A DNA stretch of 64,000 nucleotides from an uncultured delta proteobacterium (GCA_963729715.1 CAVSPA010000005.1:672001-736000); one strand, 5' to 3'; shown: positions 27,873 to 51,176, numbered from the stretch's first letter. A program made the numbers and translations. Notes: generated by a model not told the origin, from the sequence alone.

Positions 27873-27916
27873 TTATTATATAGAGTCTGAACAGGATGCA
27901 TAGAAAGGATGTCGTT

Positions 27917-28487
27917 ATGGAACAACCGCTCAAGATAGTATATCGCAATATACTGCCGGCGCATAAAGATGTCATTGATCCGATAATGAGGGAGCACGCC
28001 GTTAAACTGGACAAGTACTTTCCCAAGATAATCAGTTGTCGTGGTGGAAAAGACACAAGGGCGGCATCACGTAGGCGATCTCTACAGAACAACCATAACG
28101 CTTACAGTGCCGCATAGAGAGATCGTCGTGAATCGCGAGCATCCCCGTAACCACAGTCACGAAGACATGGTTGTTACGGTAGGCCATGTTTTCGACGATG
28201 CGGCGCGGCAACTTGAAGAATATGCACGGATGCGGGGGAAGGAGCTAAAAGACCACGATCTACTGCCTCACGGTGTGATCCATAAACTCTACCTTAAGGA
28301 TGGTTATGGATTTATACAAGGATCAGGCGATAGGGAAATTTACTTTCACCGGAACAGTGTGATCGACGGGTTCGATAACCTTGAGATCGGGACAGCGGTC
28401 CGTTTTGAGGAGGAGGAAGAGAAGAAAGGCCCGCAGGACAGCACCGTCAAGATTGTGAGGAAGGAGCACACCCATCACAGGCATTAA
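27917..28487 (+). pseudogene. HPF/RaiA-like + cold-shock domain fusion, frameshifted near 28040
   Basis: MEQPLKIVYRN...KLDKYFPKIISC continues in another frame as VVEK...DAARQLEEY...GYGFIQ...IYFHRNSV. Confidence 0.78.
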
Positions 28488-28552: not shown

Positions 28553-28843
28553 TCACCGCGCTGCTGTGGCAGCGGCTCTCTTGCGTCCGTTTTTCTTGAC
28601 ATCCTTGAAAGGCACCTTCCCACGGGAAGGGCGCAGCACTTTTTCCGAAAGGTCTTCTTCGATAGGCACTTCTTTCCCGAATTCAAGGACCTCCATCAGA
28701 GGCTCTTCGTTTTCGTAATCGCCGAGTTCCCAGATCATCTCATCGAGGTCCCCGTCGCGGTATCTATCCCTCCCGCGTTCAAATTCCCTCGTAATGTCGT
28801 TGAGAAATGTGTCGAGCGGTTTCACTCTGTCGTAATATGCCAT
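28553..28843 (-). CDS. small hypothetical protein, acidic core with basic tail
   Basis: 96 aa ORF with RBS GAGGAGG; divergent from the giant AAA gene. Confidence 0.6.
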   Translation of the reverse strand: MAYYDRVKPLDTFLNDITREFERGRDRYRDGDLDEMIWELGDYENEEPLMEVLEFGKEVPIEEDLSEKVLRPSRGKVPFKDVKKNGRKRAAATAAR

Positions 28844-29101
28844 TTTTCCCTCCTCGGTATTTTCGAATTATAGATAAAATCTAAGCCGGATAAAAAATTA
28901 CATCCATCATAAAATTCATAAAATCCAGTTTTGAAAAACCTGAATTTTACATAAGGGAATGGATGATAGGCGCGGTTTATTTGGCCTCTCTTTCTGCGAC
29001 AGCAATTCTTACCCATTGACACACCCACCCCCTTTCTTTTATGCTCCCTGTGTGACTCTTTTACGCAAGACTGACAACTCTTTTTGAACGCAACTACAGT
29101 T

Positions 29102-32100
29102 ATGCAGGGTAAATCAGAAACAGAAGAAGGCCGTTTGCGGATCAAATGTATAGAAGAACTGGTTCGCCGAAGGGGGCTGGACGAAGGGGAAGCGCTGGTA
29201 ATCGACGAACGCCTGCTCGCACTGATGCAGATTATCTCCACGGGACTGGGAGATGATATTCATCTGAAAATTGCCCCCGGCAGCAACTGGAGATATAACA
29301 GTGAAACAAACGAAATGGTATTTCCCGTAGGATTGCTGTTGTCCTCTTCGGCAGAAGAGGTCATCGCCTTTTGCGCCCATGAGGCGGGACACAGGCAAAT
29401 ATCCCGCAGGAGCGTGAGAAAGGCGGTGTTCAAGACATTTTCCGCGACTGAATCCACCAGGCTTCTCTTGACTGCCTTTGAAGACAGCCGTGTAGATAAC
29501 TGGCTGACAAGCGTCTTTGCGGGAATAAAACACTACCTGGATATTGCCTATGACGAGATGCTCCCCCGTGATTTGTCGAGATCGTCGTACGTGGATTATC
29601 TGAAGGGTGAAATCTCCAAGAGGGCGAGTACCTGCTGCCATCCGTATCTCCTTTACCCACATCTCGAATACCTTCTCGGAATGCGCTATTACTGGCTGTA
29701 TGGCCGCCTTCCTACGCAGTTGATGAATCCGGAAGTAGGCGCTGCCCTTGCCCGGACACACGGGGATTTTGCGGAGATCTTCAATCACTATCCTCCCGGG
29801 CGGGTCTCGGAGAATGAGAATCTGAGATTTGCGGAAGAAACGGCCTTGATGGTGAGGGACAAAATCCTTCCGGAGTATGAAAACCTTGTCCTGCTCGCGA
29901 TTACAAAGCTCGCAGAGGCCATAAAGGACGGCCAGCTCCAGGTCAAGGACAAGAAATGCGCCCCGGAGGATTTGAGCCCGGATGAGATCGAGGAAGCGGC
30001 GAGAAAATTATTAGAGCTAAAAGCGAGGGAGCTGGCGGACAAGTTATCTCCCAAGACGGAAAAGCGCACCGGGAAAACAGAGGAATACAGAAAGGAAACC
30101 CCTGAAGAAACAGCTCCGCGCAGAGCGGGCGGAAAATCCGCCGGGGAAAGAACGGCGCCGTTGCCCACAGAGACTCTCCGCGACCTCATCAAGAAGCAGC
30201 GAAGGATAGACCGCGACGAGAACACAAAGATAGGTGAGTACGAAAAAGTCTTCAGGCTGATCTCGAATCTGGTCCAGGCCTTAAGCGGGGTTTTGGAAAA
30301 TCACTTCGCGAAAAATAAGAGGCCTTCCTTCAAAGGCTATTTCCCTTCCGGCCAGAAGCCTGATCTGCGGAGGGCCATGGAGCTTTCCCGGAAATTGAGC
30401 GAGGGTATTCCCGTGCAGGATAGGGATCTCAAGGTCTTCTTGAAGAGGAGGCTTCCAACACAGAGGGACCACAAAATCATCCTCGCGCTCGATGAATCGG
30501 GTTCCATGGACGAACCCAAGAGGACATCCGCCCTCGCAGGTCTTCTCATCTTTATGGAGGCCCTCGATCATATCGGCATCGACTACGGGGTGATAGGATT
30601 TTCCGATAGCCCCATTATGCACAAGGAGTTGGGCGTGAAACTGGATAACGCAGGCCGGAGGGTATTGTTCGACGAGGTCTCCCTGTGCATACCCGGAGGC
30701 TCCACCGCAGATGCAGATGCGCTCCAGTTGGCGACGAATATATTAAAGGATCAACCCGAAGATTCATCAAGGTGGATCATCATGGTGACGGATGGAGAAG
30801 GAAACGTGAATACAACCGGTAAGACGTTTGTCGAGCTTCAGAAGGAGGCTCTCGATCAAAAGATAGAGGTGCTCGGTGTGGGTCTGGGAGAGGAGGTAAC
30901 GGAGGTCATAAGGAGGTACGCAAGCGGCATGCAGATTAATGCGGTGGAAGAACTCCCGTCCGTCCTCTCGGGCATACTGGAGGAAAAACTTGTTACGCAG
31001 GATGCATACTGGGACAGTTTTCTCACGCCCCGCCATGAGGCCCATATAGAGAGGGAAGATCCCGATGTGTCCCTGCCCCCGGATTTGTCGGTGCTCCTCG
31101 CGTCTCTCTATCTTTATCTGAAGGAAAACATTCCCGCTTTCAATGTTAGGCATCTGAAGAGGGCATCGGAGCTCCTAGGATTTTTGCTGAACCGGGGTTA
31201 TCCGGGAAAAGAAGCGTTCGGAAGGAGCCTGAAATACGCCTTTGTTGATACACAGGAACAGTCCCAGCGGGTAAAAGAGCTCATCCTCGAAAGGATTGAA
31301 GACATGCGGAAGGTATTTCCGGACATCACCCGGGAAGACTTGCCGCAGGAATTTCACCAAGCGTCTTCACGGGCGGACGTTCCCGTGTCTGCGATCCCGC
31401 ATGACCTGGCTTCTGTCCTGGATATTTTAATGAAGAACAGCGCTCATCCTCGGATCGAAAAGGCCCTTTCATTGTTGAAGGCGCTCATCAGTTCCTCTGA
31501 CACGGCATTCGTGAGCATCCCCGGAATGGAAGCGGCGTTCCGGGTTATTGACGACGAACTTCTAAAGGAAATAGCCATAGAGGAGATCGAAAAAAAATTA
31601 GAGGATAAGAGCTGGGCTGTCCGCCAGCCCGCAGCCTTAGCCCTGGGCCGGGTTTATCTCGCGCTCGTCAAGCAAGGAAAAGATGTCGACTTGAGTCTGC
31701 TTGAGGAAATGCTGAAGGATGAAGATCCGTCCGTCTGCCGCGCCGCCGCACAGGCCCTCAGTCGGATCTGGTATCACTATCATGGGAAGGGAAAAATAAC
31801 GCTGGGGGCATTGGAGCGCCGACTGGGAGATGAAAACTGGGCCGTCCGCCAGGCTGCGGCAAGGGCTCTCGGAAGGATATATCCTCTACTTATGGAACAA
31901 GGACTGAATGTGGACATCAGCAAATTGGAAGGAGGGTTGTGGAATAAAAACTGGTTTGTCCGCCAGGCCGAGGCCGAGGCCTTGGGGGAGACCTACGGCG
32001 CTCTCATCAGGAAGGGAATAGAGATCAACCTCGAGGGTCTGGAAGAAAGATTGAAAGATAAAAATATACTGACCCGTCAAACCGCCGCCCTGGCCCTAGG

Positions 32101-34516
32101 ACAGGTCTATCCGCCCCTCATGAAGCGAGGGCGAGATGTTAATTTGGGAAAATTGGAAGAAAGGCTCGACAATGATGACTGGTCGGTCCGCCAGGCCGCG
32201 GCCGTGGCCTTAGGCCGGATATGGTTCCACGACTATTACCATGGCAAGATGGCTTTGACAGATTTGGAAAAGAGACTCGAAGACCCAAGCTGGCCTGTCC
32301 GCCAGGCTGCATGCCAGACCCTGGGGCAGATATACCCGACGCTTGTCGGACGGGGAAAGAATGTAAACTTAGGGAAATTGGAAGACAGGTTAAGAGACGC
32401 AGACGTGGATAGATCCGTCTGCCAAGCTGCAGCGCAGGCCCTGGGCCGGATCTGGCCTCGCAGCTATCATCGAAAGAAGATTACCTTAAAAGAGTTGGAG
32501 GAAAGGCTGAAGGATGAAAACTGGTTTGTACACCAGGCTGCCGCACTCGCCCTAGTCCGTATACAACATGTCCTTGTCAAACGGGGGAATGACGCCGAAT
32601 TAGACAAACTGGATAAGAGATTGAAGGATAAGATCTGGTCGGTCCGCCAGGCGGCGGCACGGGCGTCAATAGAAATCTTTGCGGATATAATCTCGGGCAA
32701 GAAGAAGGAGTTTGGGAAGGCGCTTGCTTCCTTCAATGAGATGCTGAGTAAACCTATGGGAAGTGCCATAGCAGGCACACATGCGGGCCAGGTGCAGATC
32801 GGTGAAAAATCTTTAACAGTGGGAGATCTGCTCTTAGACAGGGCGGAACTGAGAGACGATATACCCGCCTGCGTAATGACGGAATCCGGCTATCACATGT
32901 TAGAGACGTTGTGCATGGGCTACCTCTTGAGACACTCCGTCCTGCTCCTGGGCCCTACGTCAACAGGGAAGAGCTTCTTGATCAAATGGTTCGCGAGTGT
33001 GTTGGGCTATGAGCACCTCTCATATTCCATCAACCCCTACACCTCCAAGTTTGAGATAATCGGCGGCATTAAACCAGACAAGGAAGGCAGATTTGTCTGG
33101 CAGGACGGCATTCTTCTGAATGCGGCGCGAGACGGCCTGTGGCTCACTCTCGAAGAGATAAACCTCGCGTCTTCCGAAGTGGTCGAGATAATGAACGACT
33201 ATCTCATTACGGGACGGGTATCCTACTCGGCAAACGGGGAGCAGAAAGAATTGTATCCCCATCCCACTTTCAGACTCTTTGCCACAGGGAACCCGGAAAG
33301 TTACAGCCAGAGGCAGAAACTCTCCGAGGTATTTCTTTCCAGGTTCAAAATACTCTATCAAAAAGAACTTTCGGAAGAGGAACTGACCCAGGTATTAAGT
33401 TCTTTATTCGAGATTACTTCCGCTGCGGCCCTTCCCATTGCGAGATTTCACACTACCCTGCAGAACCAGGCGGACAGCCGCATCATCGGCAAGACGGAAA
33501 AAGACCCGTATATATTTACCCTCAGGGACATAATAAGACTGGGGAGGAGGTTGGAGCCAGTCTTGGCGAACAGATCAGCCGACAAGGAATATTTCAAAAA
33601 GTTTTTCCTCGAGTTGTTCAGCGTTTATATAGGCAGATTGAGGGACAGCTCCGAAAGAGAGGCAGTGGTCAGTCTATTGGATGCATATTTTGGTTTCCGG
33701 GCCGAGGGCTTGGACCTGAAAGAAGTGCTCATATCCGCTTCTCTGGACATGGATTCCCTACTTGCAGACTTGACATCCTCAAAGGGAGATGAACTGATTC
33801 CCCGACATGACGCAGCGATTGTACCCACACCGACCCAGAGGATAACTCTCTATCTAATCCTCACGGCCCTGATAAATAACGAACCTCTTCTTGTGGCAGG
33901 AAATCCTGCCTCAGGAAAGACCACCCTCATCAGATATCTGGCCGGTCAAAAAGAGACGAACCTCTACTATGTAAACCTCTCCTCAGATACGGGCCTGGAA
34001 GAGCTTCTGGGCGGTTATATTCAAGACAAAAAGGGGAAATGGCATTACAGGAAGGGCCTACTGTTCATGGCCATGGAAAAAGGAAGCTGGCTCCTCATAG
34101 ACGAAGCGAATCTGTCCCCCCTGTCCGAGTATTTAAACACACTCCTTGACTTTGGCTACGTCATTGATGGAGAGGAAAATGTCTGTTACGCCCATCCTAA
34201 TTTCAGGATATTTCTCTCGATGAATCCTCCTTCCGTGCATCAATCGCGTAACCTGCTCTCACCTGCGTTGAGATCAAGATTTACAGAGGTGTGGGTTGAG
34301 GAGTTGACCAATTTAGGAGAACTCGCTGGTTTAGTAGATACCTGGAGCAAGGCTCACGAGGAGGCGCAAACATCTCACAAAAAAAGTAGGGGGAAAAAGA
34401 GGAAAGATGCGCGTGATGAAAAAATCTCCGATGATAAAAAACCGGCAAAAACCGATGCCAAGAAGGAGGATGAGGGATTTGCATCCGACAAGCGATTTAC
34501 CCATTATTCGACGTGA
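29102..34516 (+). CDS. giant HExxH-vWA-HEAT-tandem AAA+ (midasin/MoxR-like) protein
   Basis: HEAGH...FEDSRVD; MIDAS DESGS..T..TDG; 10 HEAT repeats; Walker A GPTSTGKS and GNPASGKT; HPxFRxFxxxNP; LSPALRSRF. Start ATG 29102 or TTG 29084. Confidence 0.85.
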   Translation: MQGKSETEEGRLRIKCIEELVRRRGLDEGEALVIDERLLALMQIISTGLGDDIHLKIAPGSNWRYNSETNEMVFPVGLLLSSSAEEVIAFCAHEAGHRQISRRSVRKAVFKTFSATESTRLLLTAFEDSRVDNWLTSVFAGIKHYLDIAYDEMLPRDLSRSSYVDYLKGEISKRASTCCHPYLLYPHLEYLLGMRYYWLYGRLPTQLMNPEVGAALARTHGDFAEIFNHYPPGRVSENENLRFAEETALMVRDKILPEYENLVLLAITKLAEAIKDGQLQVKDKKCAPEDLSPDEIEEAARKLLELKARELADKLSPKTEKRTGKTEEYRKETPEETAPRRAGGKSAGERTAPLPTETLRDLIKKQRRIDRDENTKIGEYEKVFRLISNLVQALSGVLENHFAKNKRPSFKGYFPSGQKPDLRRAMELSRKLSEGIPVQDRDLKVFLKRRLPTQRDHKIILALDESGSMDEPKRTSALAGLLIFMEALDHIGIDYGVIGFSDSPIMHKELGVKLDNAGRRVLFDEVSLCIPGGSTADADALQLATNILKDQPEDSSRWIIMVTDGEGNVNTTGKTFVELQKEALDQKIEVLGVGLGEEVTEVIRRYASGMQINAVEELPSVLSGILEEKLVTQDAYWDSFLTPRHEAHIEREDPDVSLPPDLSVLLASLYLYLKENIPAFNVRHLKRASELLGFLLNRGYPGKEAFGRSLKYAFVDTQEQSQRVKELILERIEDMRKVFPDITREDLPQEFHQASSRADVPVSAIPHDLASVLDILMKNSAHPRIEKALSLLKALISSSDTAFVSIPGMEAAFRVIDDELLKEIAIEEIEKKLEDKSWAVRQPAALALGRVYLALVKQGKDVDLSLLEEMLKDEDPSVCRAAAQALSRIWYHYHGKGKITLGALERRLGDENWAVRQAAARALGRIYPLLMEQGLNVDISKLEGGLWNKNWFVRQAEAEALGETYGALIRKGIEINLEGLEERLKDKNILTRQTAALALGQVYPPLMKRGRDVNLGKLEERLDNDDWSVRQAAAVALGRIWFHDYYHGKMALTDLEKRLEDPSWPVRQAACQTLGQIYPTLVGRGKNVNLGKLEDRLRDADVDRSVCQAAAQALGRIWPRSYHRKKITLKELEERLKDENWFVHQAAALALVRIQHVLVKRGNDAELDKLDKRLKDKIWSVRQAAARASIEIFADIISGKKKEFGKALASFNEMLSKPMGSAIAGTHAGQVQIGEKSLTVGDLLLDRAELRDDIPACVMTESGYHMLETLCMGYLLRHSVLLLGPTSTGKSFLIKWFASVLGYEHLSYSINPYTSKFEIIGGIKPDKEGRFVWQDGILLNAARDGLWLTLEEINLASSEVVEIMNDYLITGRVSYSANGEQKELYPHPTFRLFATGNPESYSQRQKLSEVFLSRFKILYQKELSEEELTQVLSSLFEITSAAALPIARFHTTLQNQADSRIIGKTEKDPYIFTLRDIIRLGRRLEPVLANRSADKEYFKKFFLELFSVYIGRLRDSSEREAVVSLLDAYFGFRAEGLDLKEVLISASLDMDSLLADLTSSKGDELIPRHDAAIVPTPTQRITLYLILTALINNEPLLVAGNPASGKTTLIRYLAGQKETNLYYVNLSSDTGLEELLGGYIQDKKGKWHYRKGLLFMAMEKGSWLLIDEANLSPLSEYLNTLLDFGYVIDGEENVCYAHPNFRIFLSMNPPSVHQSRNLLSPALRSRFTEVWVEELTNLGELAGLVDTWSKAHEEAQTSHKKSRGKKRKDARDEKISDDKKPAKTDAKKEDEGFASDKRFTHYST
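31586..32680 (+). repeat. ten ~38-aa HEAT-like coding repeats
   Basis: Consensus LExRLxDxxWxVRQAAAxALGRIY/W repeated ten times. Confidence 0.88.
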
Positions 34517-35280
34517 GTGCCATGCTCCCCACAGGTGAAATAACCCGCCGCCTCTTTGATAGTGTGTCTTGTAGAGGGAATAACACCGTGATCGAAGAAG
34601 TCCGCATCGGCCTCGGCTATGTGGGGGTACGGTTGGACGATCGGCGCATGGGGCTGGCGGCCGTTCCACTCCACGAGCTGCCAGCAGGCTGTTCCGTATG
34701 TCCCGATGCCGGAAGAGTGGCCGGTTCAAAGGCGCTCTCTCTTCTCGGCAGCCTCATAGAAGGACAGAATCCGCTCTCGAGAGCCTTGGGTCTTGCTGCT
34801 GCGAATGCCGTTCTTCATACAGAATTCGGTGAAGATGAAAGAAATTCCCTCTCGATCATGAAATTAACGCCTGAAGATCATGTAGCCATGGTCGGTCTCT
34901 TCACGCCCATGGTTCCGAAGATCGAAAGAACGGGGGCAAAACTCACCGTCATCGAAAGGAACCCCGCCCGCCTGGCCGTTCTCGATAAGAAAGATAGTGA
35001 CAGGATATTGAAGGAATGTACTGTCGCGATTATTACGGCAACCGCACTTCTTAACGACACTCTCGAAGAAATTCTGAATGGCCTGGGTGATCCAAGGCAC
35101 GTAGCCATCCTCGGTCCCTCGACGCCCCTTCTGCCAGAAATTTTTCAGGGAACGCCTGTCCATCACCTGGGTGGGGCGATAGTCCGGGACACCGGGAAAT
35201 GCATGCAGATCATCTCCGAAGGCGGAGGCACACCGGCGATGCGCCCCTACCTTAGGTCCATAAACCTGCTCGTTAAGTAA
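34513..35280 (+). CDS. DUF364 / Rossmann-like putative metal-chelation protein
   Basis: VRIGLGY, ALGLAAANA, VAMVGLF, IITATALLNDT, ILGPSTPL; overlaps upstream stop (GTGA). Confidence 0.8.
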   Translation: MSAMLPTGEITRRLFDSVSCRGNNTVIEEVRIGLGYVGVRLDDRRMGLAAVPLHELPAGCSVCPDAGRVAGSKALSLLGSLIEGQNPLSRALGLAAANAVLHTEFGEDERNSLSIMKLTPEDHVAMVGLFTPMVPKIERTGAKLTVIERNPARLAVLDKKDSDRILKECTVAIITATALLNDTLEEILNGLGDPRHVAILGPSTPLLPEIFQGTPVHHLGGAIVRDTGKCMQIISEGGGTPAMRPYLRSINLLVK

Positions 35281-36839: not shown

Positions 36840-37496
36840 TCACGCGGTTGCGGCAAAGGCATAGGCTGCAAAGAGACCGTCATGACTGAGACTGAGATCA
36901 ATTGCCGCGGGCTCGCCACTTATACATAAGAATGGCGGTCCCAGACCATAGGGACTCTTCACCCGCCTGATTTCGATATTTTCCGGGGATTCATCATAAT
37001 GTGTTGAGAGGTGCAGCTTGAGGACTTTACGCACAAAGGCTGATTCGTAATCGGGCGAAGCCTGTGAACCAGGGCTGATGCGGGCAACGTGCCAGACGAG
37101 TGCATCAATCTCATCGGATGCTGACGTAGTTCCGATGCAATGGACATAGTCGGAAGTTATCAAAACCTTGATCTCTATCCTGCCATACGGCGTATCAACG
37201 AATCCTGTAAGGGTATCACTTCCAGAAGAAAGTCGGACTGATTCTTCCGCACAATTTAGACTCACTTCATATAAGCGGGGGACGGAAGTGGCGGAAGGGT
37301 CAAGCTTCTTGACAAGCTTGTACGCCGTTTCCTTGCCTGCCCAGAGCGCCCACAAGACGGCGTCCTGGCTCTCTGCGCGGGATATCAATTCTTTTTCACG
37401 GGGTGTGAAGACGCGGTTAATGAATCGCGTATCCCGACTCTTCCCCATATTGTGTGGATCGGTCAGATCCACAATATCGTTGCCGATGCGAATCAA
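36840..37496 (-). CDS. 4'-phosphopantetheinyl transferase
   Basis: IGNDIVD, RVFTPRE, WAGKETAYK, SLSHDG; probable TTG start 37496 overlapping the end of the acyltransferase. Confidence 0.85.
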   Translation of the reverse strand: MIRIGNDIVDLTDPHNMGKSRDTRFINRVFTPREKELISRAESQDAVLWALWAGKETAYKLVKKLDPSATSVPRLYEVSLNCAEESVRLSSGSDTLTGFVDTPYGRIEIKVLITSDYVHCIGTTSASDEIDALVWHVARISPGSQASPDYESAFVRKVLKLHLSTHYDESPENIEIRRVKSPYGLGPPFLCISGEPAAIDLSLSHDGLFAAYAFAATA

Positions 37497-38226
37497 AATA
37501 ACCTTTCTCCATTTGTGCCATATGTTTGATGATCTGCTCTGCATAGCGGCGCTGAGCCCTGAGTCCGTTTTCTTGTATCGGTTCGGGCTCAAAGACTTCT
37601 ACGTTCACCGCAAAACGCTCGCGAAATCTGGGAATGAAGCCGTAAGAATGCTGGCTGTCACCTCGCAGATAGATACACATTACCTTGCAGGTTTCAAAAT
37701 CCTTGATGAACCGGCCCACACCGTAGGAAAAACTCTCGGTATTAACGCGGCCTGTCCGGGAGCGCCCTCCTTCCGGAAAAATCAGCAATGGCTGTTTCCA
37801 TTCGAGAAGGGATGTGCATTTATCAAGGGTGTTTTTCATCTCTTCACGATTGCCGCCCCTGTTGATGGGGACGCACTTGGCGAGGTAACAAAGAACTGCC
37901 ATGATGATATTCCGCTGGAAATTGTTTCTCTCCGGCAAATTCCACGGCAGCTCACGGTAATGCAGTAAGTTACGCGTGAAGGAAAATGCCGCATATGTAA
38001 TGATTAGGGAATCGATCATCGTGAGATGATTCGCGCAGATGATCCACGGCCCTTCGTAGTTCCTGAAATGACGTGCGCATTCCTCTCTGATCTTCAGTAT
38101 ATTCCTTACCCTGTAGCCCATGAGCCAGATGACTGAAAAATAAAGAGGGGCGATAACAAAAATGGCAATCCGACCAAGCGTGTATTGAATCAGCAGAGGG
38201 CCTTGGAGCATCAACTTCTTCTTCAT
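37417..38226 (-). CDS. PlsC-family lysophospholipid acyltransferase
   Basis: NHLTMID (HX4D), PINR, FPEGGRS. Confidence 0.88.
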   Translation of the reverse strand: MKKKLMLQGPLLIQYTLGRIAIFVIAPLYFSVIWLMGYRVRNILKIREECARHFRNYEGPWIICANHLTMIDSLIITYAAFSFTRNLLHYRELPWNLPERNNFQRNIIMAVLCYLAKCVPINRGGNREEMKNTLDKCTSLLEWKQPLLIFPEGGRSRTGRVNTESFSYGVGRFIKDFETCKVMCIYLRGDSQHSYGFIPRFRERFAVNVEVFEPEPIQENGLRAQRRYAEQIIKHMAQMEKGYFDSHRQRYCGSDRSTQYGEESGYAIH

Positions 38227-38234
38227 GACTGACC

Positions 38235-38483
38235 TTATCCTAATTTGCTCTTGATGATAGCTACGGCATCTCCGACTGTTCCGATCTTGTCGGCCTCGTC
38301 ATCTTCGACGGTGATGCCGAATGTGTCTTCACACTTTATAATGACATCTACCAGCCTGGCGGAATTGACCTTCAGGTCGTTTAGAATGTGGGTATCCTTT
38401 GTCGCCTTATCCAGCAAGCTCGGGTCCTTTGTATATCCCCTGAGGATATCGATCATTTTGTTAAAGATTGTCTGTTCGTCCAT
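38235..38483 (-). CDS. acyl carrier protein
   Basis: 82 aa acidic protein; DLKVNSARLVD (Ppant Ser in NS context), EDTFGI, TVGDAV. Confidence 0.9.
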   Translation of the reverse strand: MDEQTIFNKMIDILRGYTKDPSLLDKATKDTHILNDLKVNSARLVDVIIKCEDTFGITVEDDEADKIGTVGDAVAIIKSKLG

Positions 38484-38486
38484 TTC

Positions 38487-39779
38487 TTAATAGCTCCTTT
38501 GATTATTATTCCATCTCTTAAAGATGAGACAGCTGTTAACATCGCCGAAACCGAAACCGGCTTTGGCGATAATATTTAATTCAGGAAAGTCCATGCACTT
38601 CTGTGGCACCTTATCTCCAAATTCAGCAATATCGGGGTGTATGTCTTCACAATTGACGGAAGGATGGAGGAACCCCTTGTATAATTGCAGTACTACGGCA
38701 ACGCTCTCTATGGCACCTGCTGCGCCTAAGCAATGCCCCACCATAGATTTTGTGGAATTGATATAGGGAAAATTAGCGGGGCCGCGTTCGAGGGCTGCCG
38801 ACCAGTTCTTCACTTCATAAGGGTCGGCAAAGGTTGCCGTTAAGTGGCCGTTGATTGCGTCTATATGAGCCGGCATAATACGTGCGTCGGATATGGCGGC
38901 CTTGATGCATCGTTTGACACCCTCGGGATTCGGCGCGGTTATGGAGCCGCCCATGCGATGCCCTCCGCAATTGACGGCGCCTCCGAGAACTTCAGCATAA
39001 ATCCTCGCTCCACGTTCCAAGGCGGATTCCAGATCTTCAAGCACCAGAATTCCAGCGCCCGAGCCGGGGACAAAACCACATGCTGTGGCGCTCATCGGCC
39101 GTGAAGCAGTCTCCGGGTAATCATTGAATTTCTTGCAGATGACGCGCATGGCCTCGAATCCGGCCCAGATAAAGGGCGATTGGCCTTCGGAACCACCGGC
39201 TAAAATCCTTTTTGCAAGACCGTTCCGTATTCTCCACATCCCTTCAACAATCGCTTCATTCCCCGTGCTGCAGGCAGATGAATTTGAAGTCACCTGGTTT
39301 CCGAGAGCCAAGATGCCCGCGATACTTGCGCTTGTGCCGCTATTCATGACCTGCTCTACTATCCGGCTTCCCATGCGGCGCACTTTCCCCCGGGAAACCA
39401 TGGGCACGAGAACGGTTGTAATTGTATCCATGCCGCCGATTCCGGAGCCGACGATCACGCCTGTATCCCAGTCCACAGTATCATCGTGAATGCCAGGCAT
39501 CTTGAAACCTGCGTCGGTCCATGCGTCTACGGCTGAAACAGCGGCGTATCCGATGTTTTCGTTCATCGACATCAGTGTATCTTCATTAAAATAACTCTTG
39601 CGGATATCCTCAAAGTCCTGGGGGGCAGCGCCCACCTGGCAGGAAAAGTTCAATTCCTTAAGTTCAGGAAAAAACCGGATGCCGGAGCGCCCTTTCCGCA
39701 GGGCATCTTCAAAATTAACCAAGCCATGGGCATTGGGGGCTGCTATCCCCATCCCTGTTATGACAACTCTTCTTTTCAA
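38487..39779 (-). CDS. beta-ketoacyl-ACP synthase (FabF/FabB family)
   Basis: RRVVITG; Cys in SACSTG; His in NGHLTAT and GHCLGAAG; FGFG. Confidence 0.92.
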   Translation of the reverse strand: MKRRVVITGMGIAAPNAHGLVNFEDALRKGRSGIRFFPELKELNFSCQVGAAPQDFEDIRKSYFNEDTLMSMNENIGYAAVSAVDAWTDAGFKMPGIHDDTVDWDTGVIVGSGIGGMDTITTVLVPMVSRGKVRRMGSRIVEQVMNSGTSASIAGILALGNQVTSNSSACSTGNEAIVEGMWRIRNGLAKRILAGGSEGQSPFIWAGFEAMRVICKKFNDYPETASRPMSATACGFVPGSGAGILVLEDLESALERGARIYAEVLGGAVNCGGHRMGGSITAPNPEGVKRCIKAAISDARIMPAHIDAINGHLTATFADPYEVKNWSAALERGPANFPYINSTKSMVGHCLGAAGAIESVAVVLQLYKGFLHPSVNCEDIHPDIAEFGDKVPQKCMDFPELNIIAKAGFGFGDVNSCLIFKRWNNNQRSY

Positions 39780-39804
39780 CTAATATAAACCTCCATGAAA
39801 AACA

Positions 39805-40284
39805 TTAAGCGCCCTGGGAAGGTACTCCCCTCCCCGCGAGGACACCGAAACTCACGGCCTCGCCATTTTCCCTTTCCATGGTAACCTTCATTTTAAGGCT
39901 TCCCATGCGGAAATAGACTTTGTGACCTTTAACGATCACGCGCTCACCGGGATGCACGACCCCCGTGAACTCCACCCCTTCGGCAAGGGTAAAAAGTGTA
40001 GTCAATTTTTTTGCATCCTCCACCGTTGTATACGTCTGCCTCATGTGAAGATAAAGGCCGAAGGCAACAACCCCCGTCTGTGCCATGGCTTCAATGAGAA
40101 TCACACCCGGAGTAATCGGTTTGCCTGGGAAGTGTCCCTTATAAAAATACTCATCCTCACGAAACCGGTACGTGCCGACGATGTGCTCATCATCGAGCTC
40201 CAGGATATCGTCGATAAAGCGAAACGGATGCTGTTGGGGAACACTATTTAAAATTCGTGTCATCGTCTCCCGATCAGCCGCCAT
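39805..40284 (-). CDS. FabZ-type 3-hydroxyacyl-ACP dehydratase
   Basis: PFRFID, GHFPGKPITPGVILIEAMAQ (His/Glu dyad). Confidence 0.88.
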   Translation of the reverse strand: MAADRETMTRILNSVPQQHPFRFIDDILELDDEHIVGTYRFREDEYFYKGHFPGKPITPGVILIEAMAQTGVVAFGLYLHMRQTYTTVEDAKKLTTLFTLAEGVEFTGVVHPGERVIVKGHKVYFRMGSLKMKVTMERENGEAVSFGVLAGRGVPSQGA

Positions 40285-41002
40285 AAAGCCCCCCGTTCAC
40301 ATGGACGACACTTCCCGATATATAGGATCCCCCTGTTGCGAGAAAGGCCACGACCTCAGCCACTTCCTCGGGGCGTCCTATACGGCCCAGAGTAATGTTC
40401 TCGAGAATCCTCTCTTGCACCTCTTCGGGGAGATTCTGTGTCATCTCTGTCTCGATGAATCCCGGGGCAACTGAATTGACGAGGATATTCCTCCCTGCCA
40501 ATTCTTGCGACAGGGACTTCGTAAAGGCGTCGAGAGCTGCCTTTTCCATGGTGTAGGGGATCTGACCCGCATTGCCGGTATGTCCCACGACACTGGATAT
40601 ATTGATGATGCGGCCTCCTCTCTGACGAAGCATGAAGAGGCGGATTATACGTTTGGTCAGGTACCATGTTCCGCGCATCAAGGCCCGCTGGGCATCGAAT
40701 TGCTCGATCTTCATGCTGACGATATCGGCGTTGAGAGATAGACCCGCATTGTTGACAAGGACATCCACGCGGCCCGCCTTCTCTTTTATCTTGTTGACCA
40801 GAAGTTCCACCTGATCGATATCCACCAGATCAGCCGGAAGAAGAAAGCCGTCACCTATCTCGGAGAGTAAAGCCCTTGCATGTTCCTCGCTGCTCCGGTA
40901 GTGAATGCCCACCAGAAATCCTTCTCCGGACAGCGCCCGGCAACACGCCGCGCCTATTCCTTTTCCACCGCCTGTTACGATGGCAACAGGTTTCTCGCTC
41001 AT
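40274..41002 (-). CDS. FabG-type 3-oxoacyl-ACP reductase
   Basis: TGGGKGIG, NNAG, NISS, YTMEK, APGFIETEM. Confidence 0.9.
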   Translation of the reverse strand: MSEKPVAIVTGGGKGIGAACCRALSGEGFLVGIHYRSSEEHARALLSEIGDGFLLPADLVDIDQVELLVNKIKEKAGRVDVLVNNAGLSLNADIVSMKIEQFDAQRALMRGTWYLTKRIIRLFMLRQRGGRIINISSVVGHTGNAGQIPYTMEKAALDAFTKSLSQELAGRNILVNSVAPGFIETEMTQNLPEEVQERILENITLGRIGRPEEVAEVVAFLATGGSYISGSVVHVNGGLYGG

Positions 41003-41595
41003 GAACCGCTCCTCATGATGCCGCCTATCGAGTTTACCGATCGTTTCGGATAGTCGGGATAAATGATCCCTTTGAAAATGCCGGTGCGGGCATCTTTGAT
41101 GTGGGCAATCAGTTCATTGTCAACAAAAACCTTTCCGTCTCCGATGGCAATGCTCGCCCCCGAGTCCTTCAACTGAGCGAAGCGCCTCACTTCAATATCG
41201 TAGCGGACGCATTTGTTGTAGGGACGAATCTGGCCGCTGAAAGTAATCTCACCGCAACCGAGGGCCCTGCCGGCGCCCAAGGCGCCGCGCCAGACACAGT
41301 AAAAACCGAGAAGCTGCCATACTGCATCAACGCAGAGGCAGCCCGGCTGAACCGGGTCCCCGGGCATATGGCACTGAAAATACCAGGCATCAAGTCTGAT
41401 GTCCTGCTCTGCAACAATCGAACCCTGTCTGCCGACAGAACTAAACGACAGCACCCGATCTACCATGAGAAAGGGAGGCGCCGGCAGTCGCGCCTCAAAA
41501 TTTACAGGCGGGTCATCTACCAGGGTCCCGTAGGAAAAAGCGATGAGCTCCTCCAGCCCGAAACTCTGGCATTCTCTGAAATCCGCATACTTCAT
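40999..41595 (-). CDS. fabA: 3-hydroxyacyl-ACP dehydratase/isomerase (FabA type)
   Basis: LPAPPFLMVDR, WYFQCHMPGDPVQPGCLCVD (His/Asp dyad), GRALGCG. Confidence 0.88.
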   Translation of the reverse strand: MKYADFRECQSFGLEELIAFSYGTLVDDPPVNFEARLPAPPFLMVDRVLSFSSVGRQGSIVAEQDIRLDAWYFQCHMPGDPVQPGCLCVDAVWQLLGFYCVWRGALGAGRALGCGEITFSGQIRPYNKCVRYDIEVRRFAQLKDSGASIAIGDGKVFVDNELIAHIKDARTGIFKGIIYPDYPKRSVNSIGGIMRSGS

Positions 41596-41597
41596 GA

Positions 41598-42590
41598 TTA
41601 TTCCTCTACCTGTAAGACCATATGAACCCAGGACAACCCCGCCCCGACAATGGCAATGGCCACATGATCTCCCGGACGCAGGTCATTCCAGCGTTGGCTG
41701 AGAACAGCCGGCGCTCCGGAACAGCCGGTGTTGCCAAAAAATTCCACATTGTGCCAATGATTGTTTTCCGTAATTTGAGAACGCTCGCAGACAGTTTGCA
41801 GCATACCCATATTGGCCTGATGACCGATAAAGATGAAGCGATTGCCATTGAGAGCATAGGTCTGCTGCAGCATGCGAATAGCATCTGTTGTCTTGCGAAT
41901 GGCAAAGCCCTGCACGGAGTTCCCGTCCTGCTGGAAGTAACCCATACGGGGTATTCCCACCTTGTCCCAATCTGACGGTTTCGTTTCATAAGCGCAGGCC
42001 GTAAAGAATTTGTGCGACGGCACCGTGGCAGATACAATGGCTGCGGAACTGCCGTCACCGAACAGCACCGCAGATTTCCGATCGGCATAGTCCACGCAGC
42101 GAGTGAGATTTTCCGGATTGACCAGGAGTATAAAGGGCGGCAGTGCCTCGGGTCTCATGAGGCTGACAAAGTGCACCTGCGTACCAAAGCTGGTGCAGGC
42201 GGAATTCACGTCGAAGCAGGGTACGTCGATTCCGAGTTCCGCGGCTACGGTCGAGGCTTCCGCAGGGGAAACATTATCCGCTGCCGAGCTTCCGGAGATG
42301 ACAAGCCCGATGTCTTCCTTCTTGAGACCGGCGCGCTCAATGGCCATCTGTGCGGCAGAGGCTCCGGTTTGCGCGTTATTGTAAAGGCCTGCTGCAAAAG
42401 CTTCTCTCGGGTCTCTGTTTCTTGTTTCCTTTATATAGTCCAAAGGGAGCACGGTCCGGCGTGTATGAATGCCGACCCTCTCCATGATCCATGCCTCATT
42501 TGTTCCGATATCCATCTCTTCCAAAAATCTATTGGTAATAACATTCTCCGGGTGGAAATGGCCCATACCGTGAAGATAGAGTGCACTCAT
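41598..42590 (-). CDS. ketoacyl-ACP synthase III (FabH family)
   Basis: Cys SACTSF, LFGDG, His HQAN, Asn GNTG. Confidence 0.9.
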   Translation of the reverse strand: MSALYLHGMGHFHPENVITNRFLEEMDIGTNEAWIMERVGIHTRRTVLPLDYIKETRNRDPREAFAAGLYNNAQTGASAAQMAIERAGLKKEDIGLVISGSSAADNVSPAEASTVAAELGIDVPCFDVNSACTSFGTQVHFVSLMRPEALPPFILLVNPENLTRCVDYADRKSAVLFGDGSSAAIVSATVPSHKFFTACAYETKPSDWDKVGIPRMGYFQQDGNSVQGFAIRKTTDAIRMLQQTYALNGNRFIFIGHQANMGMLQTVCERSQITENNHWHNVEFFGNTGCSGAPAVLSQRWNDLRPGDHVAIAIVGAGLSWVHMVLQVEE

Positions 42591-43786
42591 ACAAGCTCCC
42601 TCCCGATAATCATGTTCTGGACCTCCCGCACACCTTCGTAAATGTCGATGATGTGCGCATCTCTCGCCAACTTCGAAATCTCATATTCTGACATGAAACC
42701 ATATCCGCCGTGGAGATGCAGGCCTTCGTTGGCGCAGAACAAAGCCGCCTCCGCGGCTGTATTCTTCGCGAGGGAGGCATACATGCCCCTGTCGTCCGCT
42801 TTTTCCTGAACCTTGAAAGCAGCTTTCATGAGCGCCATATCCGCGAGCTCGACTTTTTTCCACATTTGCACCAATGTCTCTCTTGCAACCGACAAATCAC
42901 AGATCCTTTGTCCAAATTGCTTGCGCTCTCTTGTGTATTCCAGAGTGACATCCAATGCCCGTTTGGCGAGACCCACACCTATTGCCGCAACCATGGGACG
43001 CGCATAGTCAAGAACGTCGATGACATACTTGAAACCCTGTCTCCGATCACCGATTATCTGATTGTCATTGATGACTACGTCTTCAAAGGTGACAGCGGCC
43101 GTATTTGATAAACGCTGCCCCAGCTTGTCTTCCGGTTTGCCAATGATGATCTTTCCCCCCGTGGGGAGAGTCATCTCCTTGCCCACTGCGAGATGCGGAT
43201 CTGAATTGGAGGGAAGCACCGGTGGGGCGGGAACTATTAAGCAGGCCATGAAGTTACCCGTCGGCTTCCCTACTTTACAAAAAACGGTAAATTGTGAGGC
43301 GTAGGACGCATTGGTGATAAAGCACTTGCTGCCATTGAGGACATACGTTCCATCCGGGCTCTTCTTGATGAACGTCGTCATGGCGGAGTTGTCAGAACCG
43401 GCGCACGGTTCCGTCAGACAGAAAGAAGCCATTATGGGATTCTCGACAAAGGGGCTTAAGAAAAGGGCCTTCTGTTCGTCCGTACCATGCTGGGCAATAA
43501 CCGTGTTTGCCAGATCATTACACATTGCCGACGTGGAAATCCCCGTATCTCCGTAGGACAGTTCTTTGATGATCATGGCCGTAGAAACGGGATCAACCTC
43601 AAATCCCTTAACCGATTCAGGGATGCTCAGATTCAAAATTCCGAGGCCCCAGGCCTTCTGGATAATTTCCCAGGGGAAAATATGCTTCTTTTCCAGCTCC
43701 ATAACCTGCGGTATGATTCCATACCTGACAAATCTCTTAACTGTATCCATATACATTTGCTGACTGCTGGTAAGATTAAAATCCAT
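42587..43786 (-). CDS. acyl-CoA/acyl-ACP dehydrogenase heading the lipid cluster
   Basis: FCLTEPCAGSD, KCFITN, KLGQR, RKQFG, HGGYGF, IYEG; start MDFNL at 43786 behind GAAGGA. Confidence 0.9.
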   Translation of the reverse strand: MDFNLTSSQQMYMDTVKRFVRYGIIPQVMELEKKHIFPWEIIQKAWGLGILNLSIPESVKGFEVDPVSTAMIIKELSYGDTGISTSAMCNDLANTVIAQHGTDEQKALFLSPFVENPIMASFCLTEPCAGSDNSAMTTFIKKSPDGTYVLNGSKCFITNASYASQFTVFCKVGKPTGNFMACLIVPAPPVLPSNSDPHLAVGKEMTLPTGGKIIIGKPEDKLGQRLSNTAAVTFEDVVINDNQIIGDRRQGFKYVIDVLDYARPMVAAIGVGLAKRALDVTLEYTRERKQFGQRICDLSVARETLVQMWKKVELADMALMKAAFKVQEKADDRGMYASLAKNTAAEAALFCANEGLHLHGGYGFMSEYEISKLARDAHIIDIYEGVREVQNMIIGRELV

Positions 43787-43833
43787 TACTGAAATCCTTC
43801 GTGCAAATTTTTGCCATAAACTTCTAAGCACAC

Positions 43834-48617: not shown

Positions 48618-49652
48618 CTACGCTTCCGCCCTTTCCAGGTGACTGGCCCTCATGCCGATGAGTCGGACCCTCTTCTTGAGTTCGACCCTCTTGAGGGAGG
48701 CGAACGCCGCTCTCCTTATCTCCTCTTCTCTATCCGTCGCATTGGGGATGGTTGTGGCCCTTGTGACTGTCTCGAAATCGCTGAACCGTACCTTTACCGT
48801 AACCGTCCTCGCCTTGAAGCTGCTGTCTCTCATGTCTGTGACAACTTCCCTCGTCAGGTCTGCGAGCGTCTTGGCTATGAACTGCCAGTTTGCTATGTCC
48901 TTCTGGAATGTCGTTTCCCTGCTTATGGATTTGGGTTCCCAGTCGGTGATAAGGGGACTGTCGTCGATGCCTCGGGAGGCATGATAGAGATAATTCCCAT
49001 AAGATGAACCGAAGCTGTCGACAAGTGTTTCCATCTGCAGAGAGGCGAGCTCCTCCAGAGTTTCAATGCCCATGTCCTTCAGGTATTTCTCTGTCTTTGG
49101 TCCGATCCCCCAGAGTTTCCTCACGGGCAGCGGCTTGAGGATGGAGAGAACATCCTCCGCAAGGATCACGATGAGGCCGTCCGGTTTATCCATGTCCGAG
49201 GCGATCTTGGCAAGAAGCTTGTTGGGGGCGATGCCGATGGAGCACGTCAGGCCCGTCTCATCTCTTATCTCTTTTTTGATTAGTTGCGAGATGTCTTCCG
49301 AAGTTCTATCGATCGCCGATATGTCGAGGAACGCCTCATCGATGCCGACATCTTCCATGGCAGGCGTGAGACTCCTGAGGATGCTCTTCACCTTCTGTGA
49401 TTCCCTTGCATATGCCTCGTAATCGACAGGAAGAAAGACGGCCTTGGGACAGAGGCCGTAAGCCGTCTTCAAAGGCATGGCAGAGTGTATGCCGAACTTT
49501 CTTGCTTCGTATGAGGCGGTGGCTACGACCCCCCTTTTCGTGGGGTCCCCGCTGCCCCCTATTACTACAGGCTGGCCGATCAATTCGGGGCGTCTCTTCT
49601 GCTCCACCGCTGCAAAAAAGGCGTCCATGTCGATGTGAAGGATGCGTCTCAA
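48618..49652 (-). CDS. dinB: DNA polymerase IV
   Basis: HIDMDAFFAAVEQ, SYEARKFG, IDEAFLD, NKLLAKIASD, GIG, VRLIG. Confidence 0.95.
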   Translation of the reverse strand: MRRILHIDMDAFFAAVEQKRRPELIGQPVVIGGSGDPTKRGVVATASYEARKFGIHSAMPLKTAYGLCPKAVFLPVDYEAYARESQKVKSILRSLTPAMEDVGIDEAFLDISAIDRTSEDISQLIKKEIRDETGLTCSIGIAPNKLLAKIASDMDKPDGLIVILAEDVLSILKPLPVRKLWGIGPKTEKYLKDMGIETLEELASLQMETLVDSFGSSYGNYLYHASRGIDDSPLITDWEPKSISRETTFQKDIANWQFIAKTLADLTREVVTDMRDSSFKARTVTVKVRFSDFETVTRATTIPNATDREEEIRRAAFASLKRVELKKRVRLIGMRASHLERAEA

Positions 49653-51163
49653 GGCTTATTGCTCGGAGCGTTGCCCGAAGTCGTCTCCGGGGCGAAGATC
49701 TGGTTGTAGAGGGATGCGAAGCGGTCCTTGCCGGTCGCGAGCATCAGTGCAAGCGGCATCGATTCTTTACCCAGCTTCACCATGTCTTCCGCCGTCTTTC
49801 TTATATCCCATTGGGCGTGCGTATCTGTCCGCAGGCGGGCGATGTGGTAAAGCTCCCTTGCATTAATTTTCATGGAAACGCGCCTGCGATGGGCGTTGGT
49901 GAGAATATAGCCGGCAGCGAGCGGGGAGAACACTTTTATCCGGGCATACACGTCTTCGCTTCGTCTTACGATTTCCATGAAGGCGTCATGCATGCCGATT
50001 TCCGATACCGCGGGTGGAACCGTTGCGCCGAGGGCGGGATCATAATCTTGACAGGTTATGGTTGCCATGCGGTGGCGCTTCATCTGGGCAAAACAGCTTG
50101 CGCTGATGAGCAGCTCAAAATGTAGTTCCGCATTTTCGAATTCACGAAGGACCGCGTCGTAGGACTTGATGTGCTTTAAAGCCGTTTTCATGAGGGACTC
50201 TTTTTCGTGCCTATCCATGGAAGAGACCACCCGCAGGCACCGGGTCATCGGCAAGTCCGATGATGAGTGTATCAGCGAGGCCATAATTCTGTCGTCTCCC
50301 TCGGGAGTGGTGTGGATGAGAGAAACGTATTGTCCTTTCCGGTTGGCCGGCGCAGTTGCGGTCCTATGTTTCTTTTGCCGCATCAGTGCTGAGACTTCGT
50401 CCGTTAAATTCTGCCTCGTCAGGCGGTCGTGGTCCGTGGCCTCCGTGTAGCGGATCAGAGAGGGGGCGGTGTCTTTCGTTGCCGCAAAGAGCTTCCGGCT
50501 GCACTCCTTCGCCTCGGCGAGCGGATGTGCGGCAAGTCGGCGGAGCATGAGTTCGAGATTCCTCGCACTGACGGTCATTCCCAGCTGCGTCTCCGTGGCA
50601 AGGGAAATGCCATAGCGGGCGTCTTCCTTGGCCCAGCCTTCCAGCATCGAGTGATTGGCGGGGTCCGCTGCAAGGCCCTTGTGCTTTTCAAAGATGTGGG
50701 GTTTCAATTTTTCAAAGAGTTCGTGATACAACCTGTTCTGCTTGGTGATGATGTCCACAAAAGGCCCCTCCACAGGGGTACCGCGGATTTCTTCGGGGAT
50801 GACGAAATCGTCTTTCAGCCTAACGTAGCGCTGCGATTTTTCCGTATAAGAACAAAGGCGAAATTTTTCGATTTCCTCGACGAGCAGCCGGGAAACGCCG
50901 AGAACGTCGATGTTGAAGACGGCATGCTCGGCAACCGAGCTGTGTCCCATCTCAAAGACGATGTTCCGGTTGGACTGGCGAGCCTTCTCCACCTCCTGCC
51001 TGGCAGCGGCGCGCAATTCGTCGACCGGCTTGGGGCTGCGGCTTATCCGTGCGTAGGCGGCGGAGATCGTCTCCGGTGTGAGATCCTGCGCACCCGGCCG
51101 CAGTTTTTGAAAATCCCGGATTGTTTCGAAATCGAGATTGTAGCCGGCGAGGATAATTTTCAT
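49649..51163 (-). CDS. thyX: FAD-dependent thymidylate synthase, tandem two-domain form
   Basis: GHSSVAEH, SYTEKSQRY, EDARY; second domain QMKRHR, HAQWDIR; start MKIIL at 51163. Confidence 0.82.
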   Translation of the reverse strand: MKIILAGYNLDFETIRDFQKLRPGAQDLTPETISAAYARISRSPKPVDELRAAARQEVEKARQSNRNIVFEMGHSSVAEHAVFNIDVLGVSRLLVEEIEKFRLCSYTEKSQRYVRLKDDFVIPEEIRGTPVEGPFVDIITKQNRLYHELFEKLKPHIFEKHKGLAADPANHSMLEGWAKEDARYGISLATETQLGMTVSARNLELMLRRLAAHPLAEAKECSRKLFAATKDTAPSLIRYTEATDHDRLTRQNLTDEVSALMRQKKHRTATAPANRKGQYVSLIHTTPEGDDRIMASLIHSSSDLPMTRCLRVVSSMDRHEKESLMKTALKHIKSYDAVLREFENAELHFELLISASCFAQMKRHRMATITCQDYDPALGATVPPAVSEIGMHDAFMEIVRRSEDVYARIKVFSPLAAGYILTNAHRRRVSMKINARELYHIARLRTDTHAQWDIRKTAEDMVKLGKESMPLALMLATGKDRFASLYNQIFAPETTSGNAPSNKP

Positions 51164-51176
51164 GAGATTGACATCC

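Follow-up and report, generated by a model that had tools for sequence, protein, structure and literature searches.

What does a protein do that carries an HExxH domain, a vWA domain with a MIDAS, a HEAT arm and two AAA modules in one chain? The gene that raises this question is located in a stretch of 64,000 nucleotides from an uncultured delta proteobacterium, referred to here as the window. It had been portrayed in a preliminary description as a self-contained remodelling or proteolytic machine of midasin and MoxR kinship, with reversed domain order, three copies of which might form a ring of six modules. In this work we have analyzed its integrity, parts, distribution and relatives. Taking the evidence as a whole, we lean towards a midasin-like machine of prokaryotes, made up of three chains, the likely job of which is MIDAS-guided, ATP-driven remodelling.

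The gene is a single stop-free open reading frame of 1,804 amino acids and ordinary composition, as judged by frame reading and a composition check. It is organized as follows:

29016-29045, + strand: sigma-70-like site TTGACA-18-TATGCT, 57 nt 5' of the ATG
29102-34516, + strand: whole gene (1,804 aa), a fusion of adaptor (HExxH, linker, vWA) and motor (lid2, HEAT, AAA1, lid1, AAA2)
29201-29911, + strand: HExxH domain, CobT-N/zincin-like (H93, E94, H97; E127-D-x-R130)
29939-30226, + strand: helix and charged, disordered linker (pLDDT <50 at residues 319-357)
30227-30466, + strand: helix and finger (MIDAS-loop-like) extension, preceding the vWA core and aligning with the same element of midasin
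30467-30991, + strand: vWA core with full MIDAS (D464-x-S466-x-S468, T535, D564), by Pfam and structure match
31073-31321, + strand: putative relocated AAA2 lid (helices H6-H9) with the sensor-2-type motif FNVR(683)HLKRA, by profile, Atlas and model
31568-32686, + strand: ten HEAT repeats, between lid2 and AAA1
32873-33367, + strand: AAA1 large subdomain (Walker A K1290, Walker B E1351/E1352, sensor 1 N1397, Arg finger R1414)
33368-33697, + strand: AAA1 lid, five helices in cis, sensor 2 R1475 (TLRD); Pfam AAA_lid_7 (E 9e-14) and model
33818-34348, + strand: AAA2 large subdomain and helix H5 only (K1606, D1667/E1668, N1708, R1726)
34349-34513, + strand: charged tail with conserved end peptide (KRFTHYST-like), Syntrophales forms only
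34513-35280, + strand: DUF364 gene, overlapping the stop by 4 nt

Every motif listed in the preliminary description has been found at its place in the translation: HEAGH at 29378 with EDSR at residue 127, the MIDAS DESGS at 30491 with T535 and D564 (TDG), the Walker A motifs GPTSTGKS at 32951 and GNPASGKT at 33899, FVWQDG, EEINLA/DEANL, HPxFRxFxxxNP (twice), TLRD at 33518 and LSPALRSRFTEVWV. The Pfam matches above cut-off are VWA, VWA_2, HEAT, HEAT_2, AAA_5 (two stretches) and AAA_lid_7 (one stretch only). The sigma-70-like site is the best of 6 in the region, where 6.5 are expected by chance. Among the 91 proteins found as relatives, 29 others span all or nearly all of the chain at 42-90% identity, and 28 of these 29 keep the domain order and every motif; the HEAT-AAA part alone is covered by 47 of the 91, and most of the remainder are midasins.

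The adaptor belongs to a known kind, the CobT/NorD-type HExxH plus vWA proteins. Its model (residues 1-639, pLDDT 73) comprises a helical HExxH domain, a disordered linker, which is the least conserved stretch of the adaptor, a finger and the vWA core. When the vWA and finger were used in Foldseek, the MIDAS of MDN1/Rea1 (human and fungal) and NorD ranked first, and the VIA structure matches were tied (Rea1-MIDAS Z 20.5, NorD Z 20.3, MDN1 Z 20.1); the superposition on Rea1-MIDAS aligned 215 residues with an rmsd of 3.6. In profile scores of the vWA, midasins reached up to 42 bits and one plasmid CobT 11 bits. The MIDAS residues are invariant in all 29 relatives.

The HExxH domain has no Pfam match of its own above cut-off. 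By Atlas features it scores 0.96 to phage proteins, one cluster having Pfam CobT on 15% of its members, and its best viral fold matches are CobT-like, with 11-16% identity in the top matches; no zincin occurs among the PDB fold matches listed for the adaptor, those lists being filled by vWA matches. Its motifs are present in all 28 fused relatives covering the domain. In the adaptor model H93-E94-x-x-H97 lies on helix 84-100 and E127 on helix 117-138, so that sequence and model together display the gluzincin-type signature of HExxH with a downstream Glu on the next long helix. In seven archaeal adaptor genes (L024:9359-10057, L026, L030, L032, L034, L045 and L047) an extra N-terminal domain of ~200 aa has been observed, with no match in Pfam and none among the representatives.

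As judged by these motifs the HExxH domain is a candidate peptidase, and we rate actual activity as quite possible, a little short of an even chance. A reading built on it keeps the same ring but makes it primarily an ATP-dependent zinc protease, in which arms and MIDAS would capture, the ring would unfold and the HExxH domain would cut either the client or its own chain, thus freeing spare adaptors. The invariance of H93, E94, H97 and E127 in 28 of 28 fused relatives and in the aligned split genes speaks for it, as do the name Peptidase M48 of the Atlas cluster at 0.96, an Hsp20 gene directly upstream in 8 archaeal loci, and the peptidolytic role proposed, in a passage of PMC7824862, for a phage MoxR paired with a metallopeptidase-vWA protein. 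The Hsp20 link, however, comes from a single archaeal lineage, and in the distant family HExxH and EDxR are both kept in only 78 of 110 members, several others having lost HExxH itself. NorD's N-terminal domain, moreover, is described as a binding lever (PMC13036017), and the peptidase label of phage cobT is called a mis-annotation in a section of PMC8651126. A machine devoted mainly to proteolysis is therefore considered unlikely, and remodelling by a three-chain ring is preferred.

The distribution of the gene was determined by a profile scan of genomes, which gave 42 loci: 19 fused and near complete, 2 fused and cut, 12 split and 9 too short to tell. The 12 split loci consist of two adjacent genes, with a further break in two of them, and the split point always falls right after the vWA: gene A encodes HExxH and vWA, and the first part of gene B corresponds to residues 658-740. 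The fused form was met in Syntrophales, in a single Planctomycetia bin, in one clade of archaea and in fragments labelled Omnitrophota; the split form was met in peat and soil archaea and in Ca. Desulfofervidaceae. Trees of adaptor and motor yield the same five clades, joined in an open fork, with the split and fused archaeal forms as sisters. Since the trees agree and these forms are sisters, the two parts travel together, and fusion or fission has happened more than once. Within the host order, 18 of the 21 other genomes from the host family were found to have the gene, against 0 of 279 from 23 other families, which indicates one gain followed by inheritance. The relatives from phage and plasmid collections (48 and 55 records) all had a single module, and none reached 80% coverage of the tandem.

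Some bins appear to be mislabelled: on reading by eye P0079 (KSB1) and P0401 (Omnitrophica) hardly differ; P0076, labelled Pacearchaeota, falls within Desulfofervidaceae, and L041, labelled Acidiferrales, within archaea. The Halomicrobium plasmid NZ_CP039376.1 (L064:1-7660) carries, as separate genes in a row, two protein kinases, a one-module AAA protein, an HExxH-vWA protein and a HEAT protein of 1,485 aa, the same parts list as that of the fused gene.

No neighbour gene recurs from one host group to another, so none names the client. DUF364 adjoins only Syntrophales/deltaproteobacterial copies (15 loci) and is not found beside the archaeal or Desulfofervidaceae ones; a conserved partner gene was rejected, as the DUF364 and Hsp20 links each come from one lineage. 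Next to the archaeal adaptor genes, a gene for 184 aa lies just downstream in 14 loci. On the opposite strand, divergent from the gene, an ORF of 96 aa (28553-28843, - strand), acidic and then basic, has similar ORFs in 7 Syntrophales loci and no match in Pfam or NCBIfam. Further upstream, two overlapping frames of 73 and 148 aa (27896-28487, + strand) appear to be one gene broken near 28040; the second carries a cold-shock domain by Pfam and the first may resemble HPF/RaiA proteins. Two other groups of genes in the window, assigned by Pfam, are a fatty-acid or polyketide-type cluster at 37417-43831 (- strand; acyltransferase, ketosynthase, two FabA-like proteins, reductase, FabH-like protein and acyl-CoA dehydrogenase), several genes of which recur in 5-6 related loci, and a DinB-type polymerase adjoining a 551-aa protein with two Thy1 stretches at 48618-51304 (- strand).

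The distribution also bears on the proposal that the gene is a biological-conflict module for defence or attack, kin to the MoxR-vWA ternary systems and the Omnitrophota giants, with the HEAT arms as variable sensors. Its range is patchy across phyla and both domains, the nearest relatives are labelled Omnitrophota, some of them within longer multi-domain chains (one context being a 3-kb contig), and the arms change fast, being TPR-like in the relative P0263. Against this, the gene is retained in those 18 of 21 family genomes at a housekeeping site, the adaptor and motor trees agree, and PADLOC yields only generic AAA/HEAT matches. No third component or effector gene adjoins at the loci examined; VMAP, iSTAND, FtsH and beta-propeller proteins (Kaur 2020) were absent by Pfam from the neighbours in the window and from selected neighbours at other loci. 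A conflict module is thus decidedly improbable, and the remodelling machine remains the preferred reading of the motor described below.

Of the two AAA modules that had been claimed, both cores are present, with an intact AAA_5-type set of Walker A and B, sensor 1 and Arg finger, but AAA2 is incomplete, with no lid behind it: in 78 of 78 family proteins only 24-78 residues, without a sensor-2 motif, follow R1726. In all 76 relatives the catalytic residues of both modules are unchanged. They include the EE of the first Walker B, which the preliminary description had remarked on; since these 76 and the odd modules of P0263 all have it, the EE belongs to the family and is no sign of decay. The number of ten HEAT repeats has held: it was read from the translation and is consistent with the alternating helices of the model, while a strict pattern found 6. 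These repeats diverge faster than the AAA parts. At the C-terminus, the end peptide K/R-R-F/Y-T-H-Y/F-S/T-x, found in 27 of 28 Syntrophales-type proteins (P0001-P0028) and absent from other clades, is perhaps a docking motif.

The missing lid appears to be located at the other end of the motor. Residues ~658-740, left unassigned in the preliminary description, resemble it, giving the chain order lid2-HEAT-AAA1-lid1-AAA2 with AAA2 ending after H5; at the split loci lid2 is the first domain of the motor gene. Its motif has the consensus F-N/T-I/V-R-H/D-L-K-R-A, and R683 is present in all 63 relatives covering the position, 13 others starting later. In the Atlas, residues 655-750 match the CbbQ/NirQ/NorQ C-terminal domain first (0.92, sharing only 123 of 256 features) and a dynein lid cluster next (0.89). 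The lid2 profile matches lid1 with E 4e-4 (prob. 35%) and the lids of P0263/P0299/P0293 with E 9e-5 (prob. 60%), and in the model its four helices match helices 2-5 of lid1, helix 1 remaining behind AAA2. The break in AAA2 falls at H5|H6, the point at which MoxR lids swap between neighbours: the MoxR helices H6-H9 pack against H5 of the adjacent subunit, and the five-helix lid of dynein is in cis (PMC4047620, section 3.6). Other searches gave less: the lid HMM found midasin lids at E 0.04 or worse and by itself missed the P0263 lids, of 21 further relatives only 6 showed a lid ahead of the first AAA, and these weakly, and the close lidless relative P0259 showed none there.

In a complex prediction the lid and the AAA tandem, two pieces of one chain that both resemble solved AAA domains, scored 0.54 against 0.00 for the best control, with runs agreeing in 100% of contacts and a partner pLDDT of at least 86. 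This lends weak support and may reflect the likeness to solved domains; in the benchmark, 116 of 157 solved pairs and 2 of 215 mismatched ones attained the mark, but at 0.60 or below only 18 of the solved pairs did so, together with both mismatches. Each of the lid tests is weak taken alone. On the evidence as a whole we infer with good confidence that residues 658-740 are the lid of AAA2 and that the ring is a trimer. The host genome contains no second match for the HExxH, vWA or lid profiles, and two weak further matches to the AAA profile (E 1e-6 and 2e-5); the lack of a paralogue counts for a three-chain ring, as none is available to fill it.

Multi-unit relatives bear on the same point. 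The adaptor profile matched 5,115 representatives at E <=0.001, and in the best 150 of these a motor unit AAA-lid-AAA recurs, mostly directly followed by HExxH-vWA. One of them, P0263 (4,471 aa; a single record, on 2 contigs), has lid-arm-AAA1-lid-AAA2 three times and then one adaptor; no genome locus was found for it. Its lid 1 precedes the first AAA, lids 2 and 3 adjoin the end of AAA2-H5 without a gap, and the last AAA2 has no lid; the motors are 90-94% alike and the repeat arms 32-40%. This layout of three units, with two lids directly behind AAA2, supports a trimer forming a six-module ring. Together with the complementary lid it gives evidence for the ring proposed at the outset; the self-contained remodelling machine proposed there is likewise supported. 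Further multi-module relatives are P0299, P0290, P0297, P0375 and P0269; among these relatives are forms with six or more AAA modules and an adaptor, one labelled as a Thermoproteota archaeon, and a two-module form in Elusimicrobia. Among the best 120 of 938 longer relatives (3,158-5,000 aa), the named ones are midasins or eukaryotic proteins.

Another assembly has been considered, in which lid2 folds back on its own AAA2 or six chains stack as two rings in the manner of p97/ClpB. The HEAT arm should be long enough to span two modules, the complex test is blind to cis versus trans, and the pTM of the monomer model is low (0.53), alignments that take in AAA1 giving an rmsd of ~24 with AAA1 outside ring geometry. 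Yet in P0263 each lid that precedes an arm runs on directly from the AAA2 of the unit before it, and the lid1-AAA2 part shows the in-ring geometry of Rea1 (Z 19.8, rmsd 3.1, 301 aligned) and dynein (Z 22.0, rmsd 3.8, 286 aligned). The stretch that connects AAA1 with AAA2, moreover, is ~40 residues long, as in the Rea1 alignment. Such arrangements have little probability left, and the closed ring of three chains is retained.

A tree of 106 modules, from which one partial midasin row was dropped, places the odd modules of P0263 with AAA1 and the even ones with AAA2 (SH-aLRT 99 each). AAA1 and AAA2 lie outside the midasin clades and group with prokaryotic modules; the deep forks are open. In topology tests, with five long or partial rows left out, midasin monophyly was not rejected (p-AU 0.48), while AAA1+AAA2 as one clade was (p-AU 0.02). 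The odd and even modules of midasin derive from a triplicated pair, and its modules 1, 3 and 5 group on the tree, fitting this origin. The expected midasin kinship has thus stood as regards sequence, but the modules sit in a prokaryotic tandem-AAA family and not inside midasin. Because of this position, and because 12 of 42 loci carry the pair as two genes, the protein is not a midasin of reversed order, as had been thought, but a pair of known kind fused in operon order (PMC7824862). That the gene is an assembly chimera, which the preliminary description had named as a refutation, or a decayed piece of eukaryotic midasin is a negligible prospect: the top solved-structure matches are midasins (E 1e-108 summed over six stretches) and the contamination of the host bin is 6.5%, but 28 proteins share the order, 19 of 42 loci carry the same fused ORF, a contig from the independent run X6 bridges 28707-32581 at ~90% identity, the catalytic residues are invariant, and the modules group with prokaryotic proteins.

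The proposed mechanism may be outlined as follows. Each chain would supply two AAA large subdomains and two small ones, arranged as lid2-(HEAT arm)-AAA1-lid1-AAA2-H5. Lid2 would pack on H5 and the nucleotide site of the AAA2 of the previous chain, so that the relocated lids would join three chains into a ring of six sites, in which three midasin/dynein-type sites (cis lid) alternate with three MoxR-type sites (H6-H9 of the neighbour). The HEAT repeats would loop out as three arms, probably selecting clients. The adaptor would act like NorD or the midasin MIDAS: its finger would enter the pore, the MIDAS would grip an acidic residue of the client, and ATP turnover would pull or twist the client; the HExxH domain would be a second anchor and may also cut. 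By analogy with the known systems, remodelling with a finger in the pore is probable. A fused trimer would carry three adaptors, compared with one NorD per NorQD hexamer, which counts against this reading; one adaptor at a time may engage and be pulled via its finger.

No published description of this architecture was found in the freely accessible literature examined; the preliminary description had known of none either. How MoxR hexamers gave rise to six-module single-chain rings such as midasin and dynein has been discussed on sequence grounds only, and the two kinds of ring differ in lid topology (PMC4047620). The family could tentatively be seen as a living halfway stage on this route, with a permuted unit, MoxR-style lid swap, triplication (P0263), active zinc protease and swappable arms, although we are somewhat more inclined to doubt than to accept this. 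If true, head-to-tail triplication would make a one-chain ring with contiguous lids, and midasin and dynein may share the route. Both lid topologies would be available in one motor of 1,100 residues, a size suited to expression, mutagenesis and structure determination, and the split, fused and triplicated forms that occur in nature would serve as controls. The system would offer a simple bacterial model of MIDAS-based pulling and, judging by its motifs, a candidate new ATP-coupled zinc protease of uncultured anaerobes.

Among solved structures the AAA and MIDAS parts resemble midasin (Rea1/Mdn1/MDN1) most, which upholds the kinship proposed with midasin and MoxR. Midasin pulls ubiquitin-like-domain factors from pre-60S ribosomes. 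Its AAA sequences are the closest solved ones (best stretch 121 bits, against 33 for CbbQ), and it shares the cis five-helix lid of AAA1 (AAA_lid_7) and a MIDAS with a preceding helix and loop extension. In contrast to midasin, the chain described here has two AAA modules instead of six, its MIDAS (residues 456-630) precedes the motor instead of being C-terminal behind a long linker and D/E-rich tether, no 1,700-residue linker is present, HExxH and HEAT domains and a relocated second lid are present, and the clades on the tree are separate. With the dynein ring it shares the superposition of lid1-AAA2 (Z ~22) and the passage from a small subdomain through a connector to the large one that comes next; dynein differs in having six modules in one chain and no vWA, at 16-21% identity.

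The pairs NorQ-NorD, CbbQ-CbbO and CobS-CobT have an adaptor of the same build, with N-terminal domain, flexible linker, finger and vWA/MIDAS, and likewise give the motor a dedicated vWA/MIDAS partner, here fused in 21, adjacent in 12 and cut off in 9 of the 42 loci. PMC13036017 describes one NorD on the NorQ hexamer, which inserts its finger into the pore and is twisted by ATP turnover. In MoxR proteins H6-H9 come from the neighbour; here the AAA2 lid is predicted to act in trans likewise, and the AAA1 lid is in cis. These pairs differ by a one-module hexamer in place of a tandem motor with an intact HExxH and a HEAT arm. The motor scores 29.6 against the NCBIfam CobS equivalog cut-off of 558.55 bits, unlike CobS proper, and no NOR, Rubisco or CobN gene is located in the locus neighbourhood. 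The jumbo phage group 2.2/phage cobST pair likewise combines an HExxH domain fused to a vWA with a MoxR-type ATPase; jumbo phages with a MoxR ATPase and a metallopeptidase-vWA partner appear in PMC7824862, and widespread phage cobST clusters in PMC8651126. The phage ATPase has a single module, and neither HEAT nor a relocated lid has been seen there. PMC3495828 describes MoxR-vWA fusions and MoxR as the precursor of midasin and dynein, and AAA_5 is listed among the domains of Omnitrophota giant proteins in part of a preprint (10.1101/2023.11.21.568195). The protein described here would work like NorQD and midasin, and is a member of neither midasin nor CobST.
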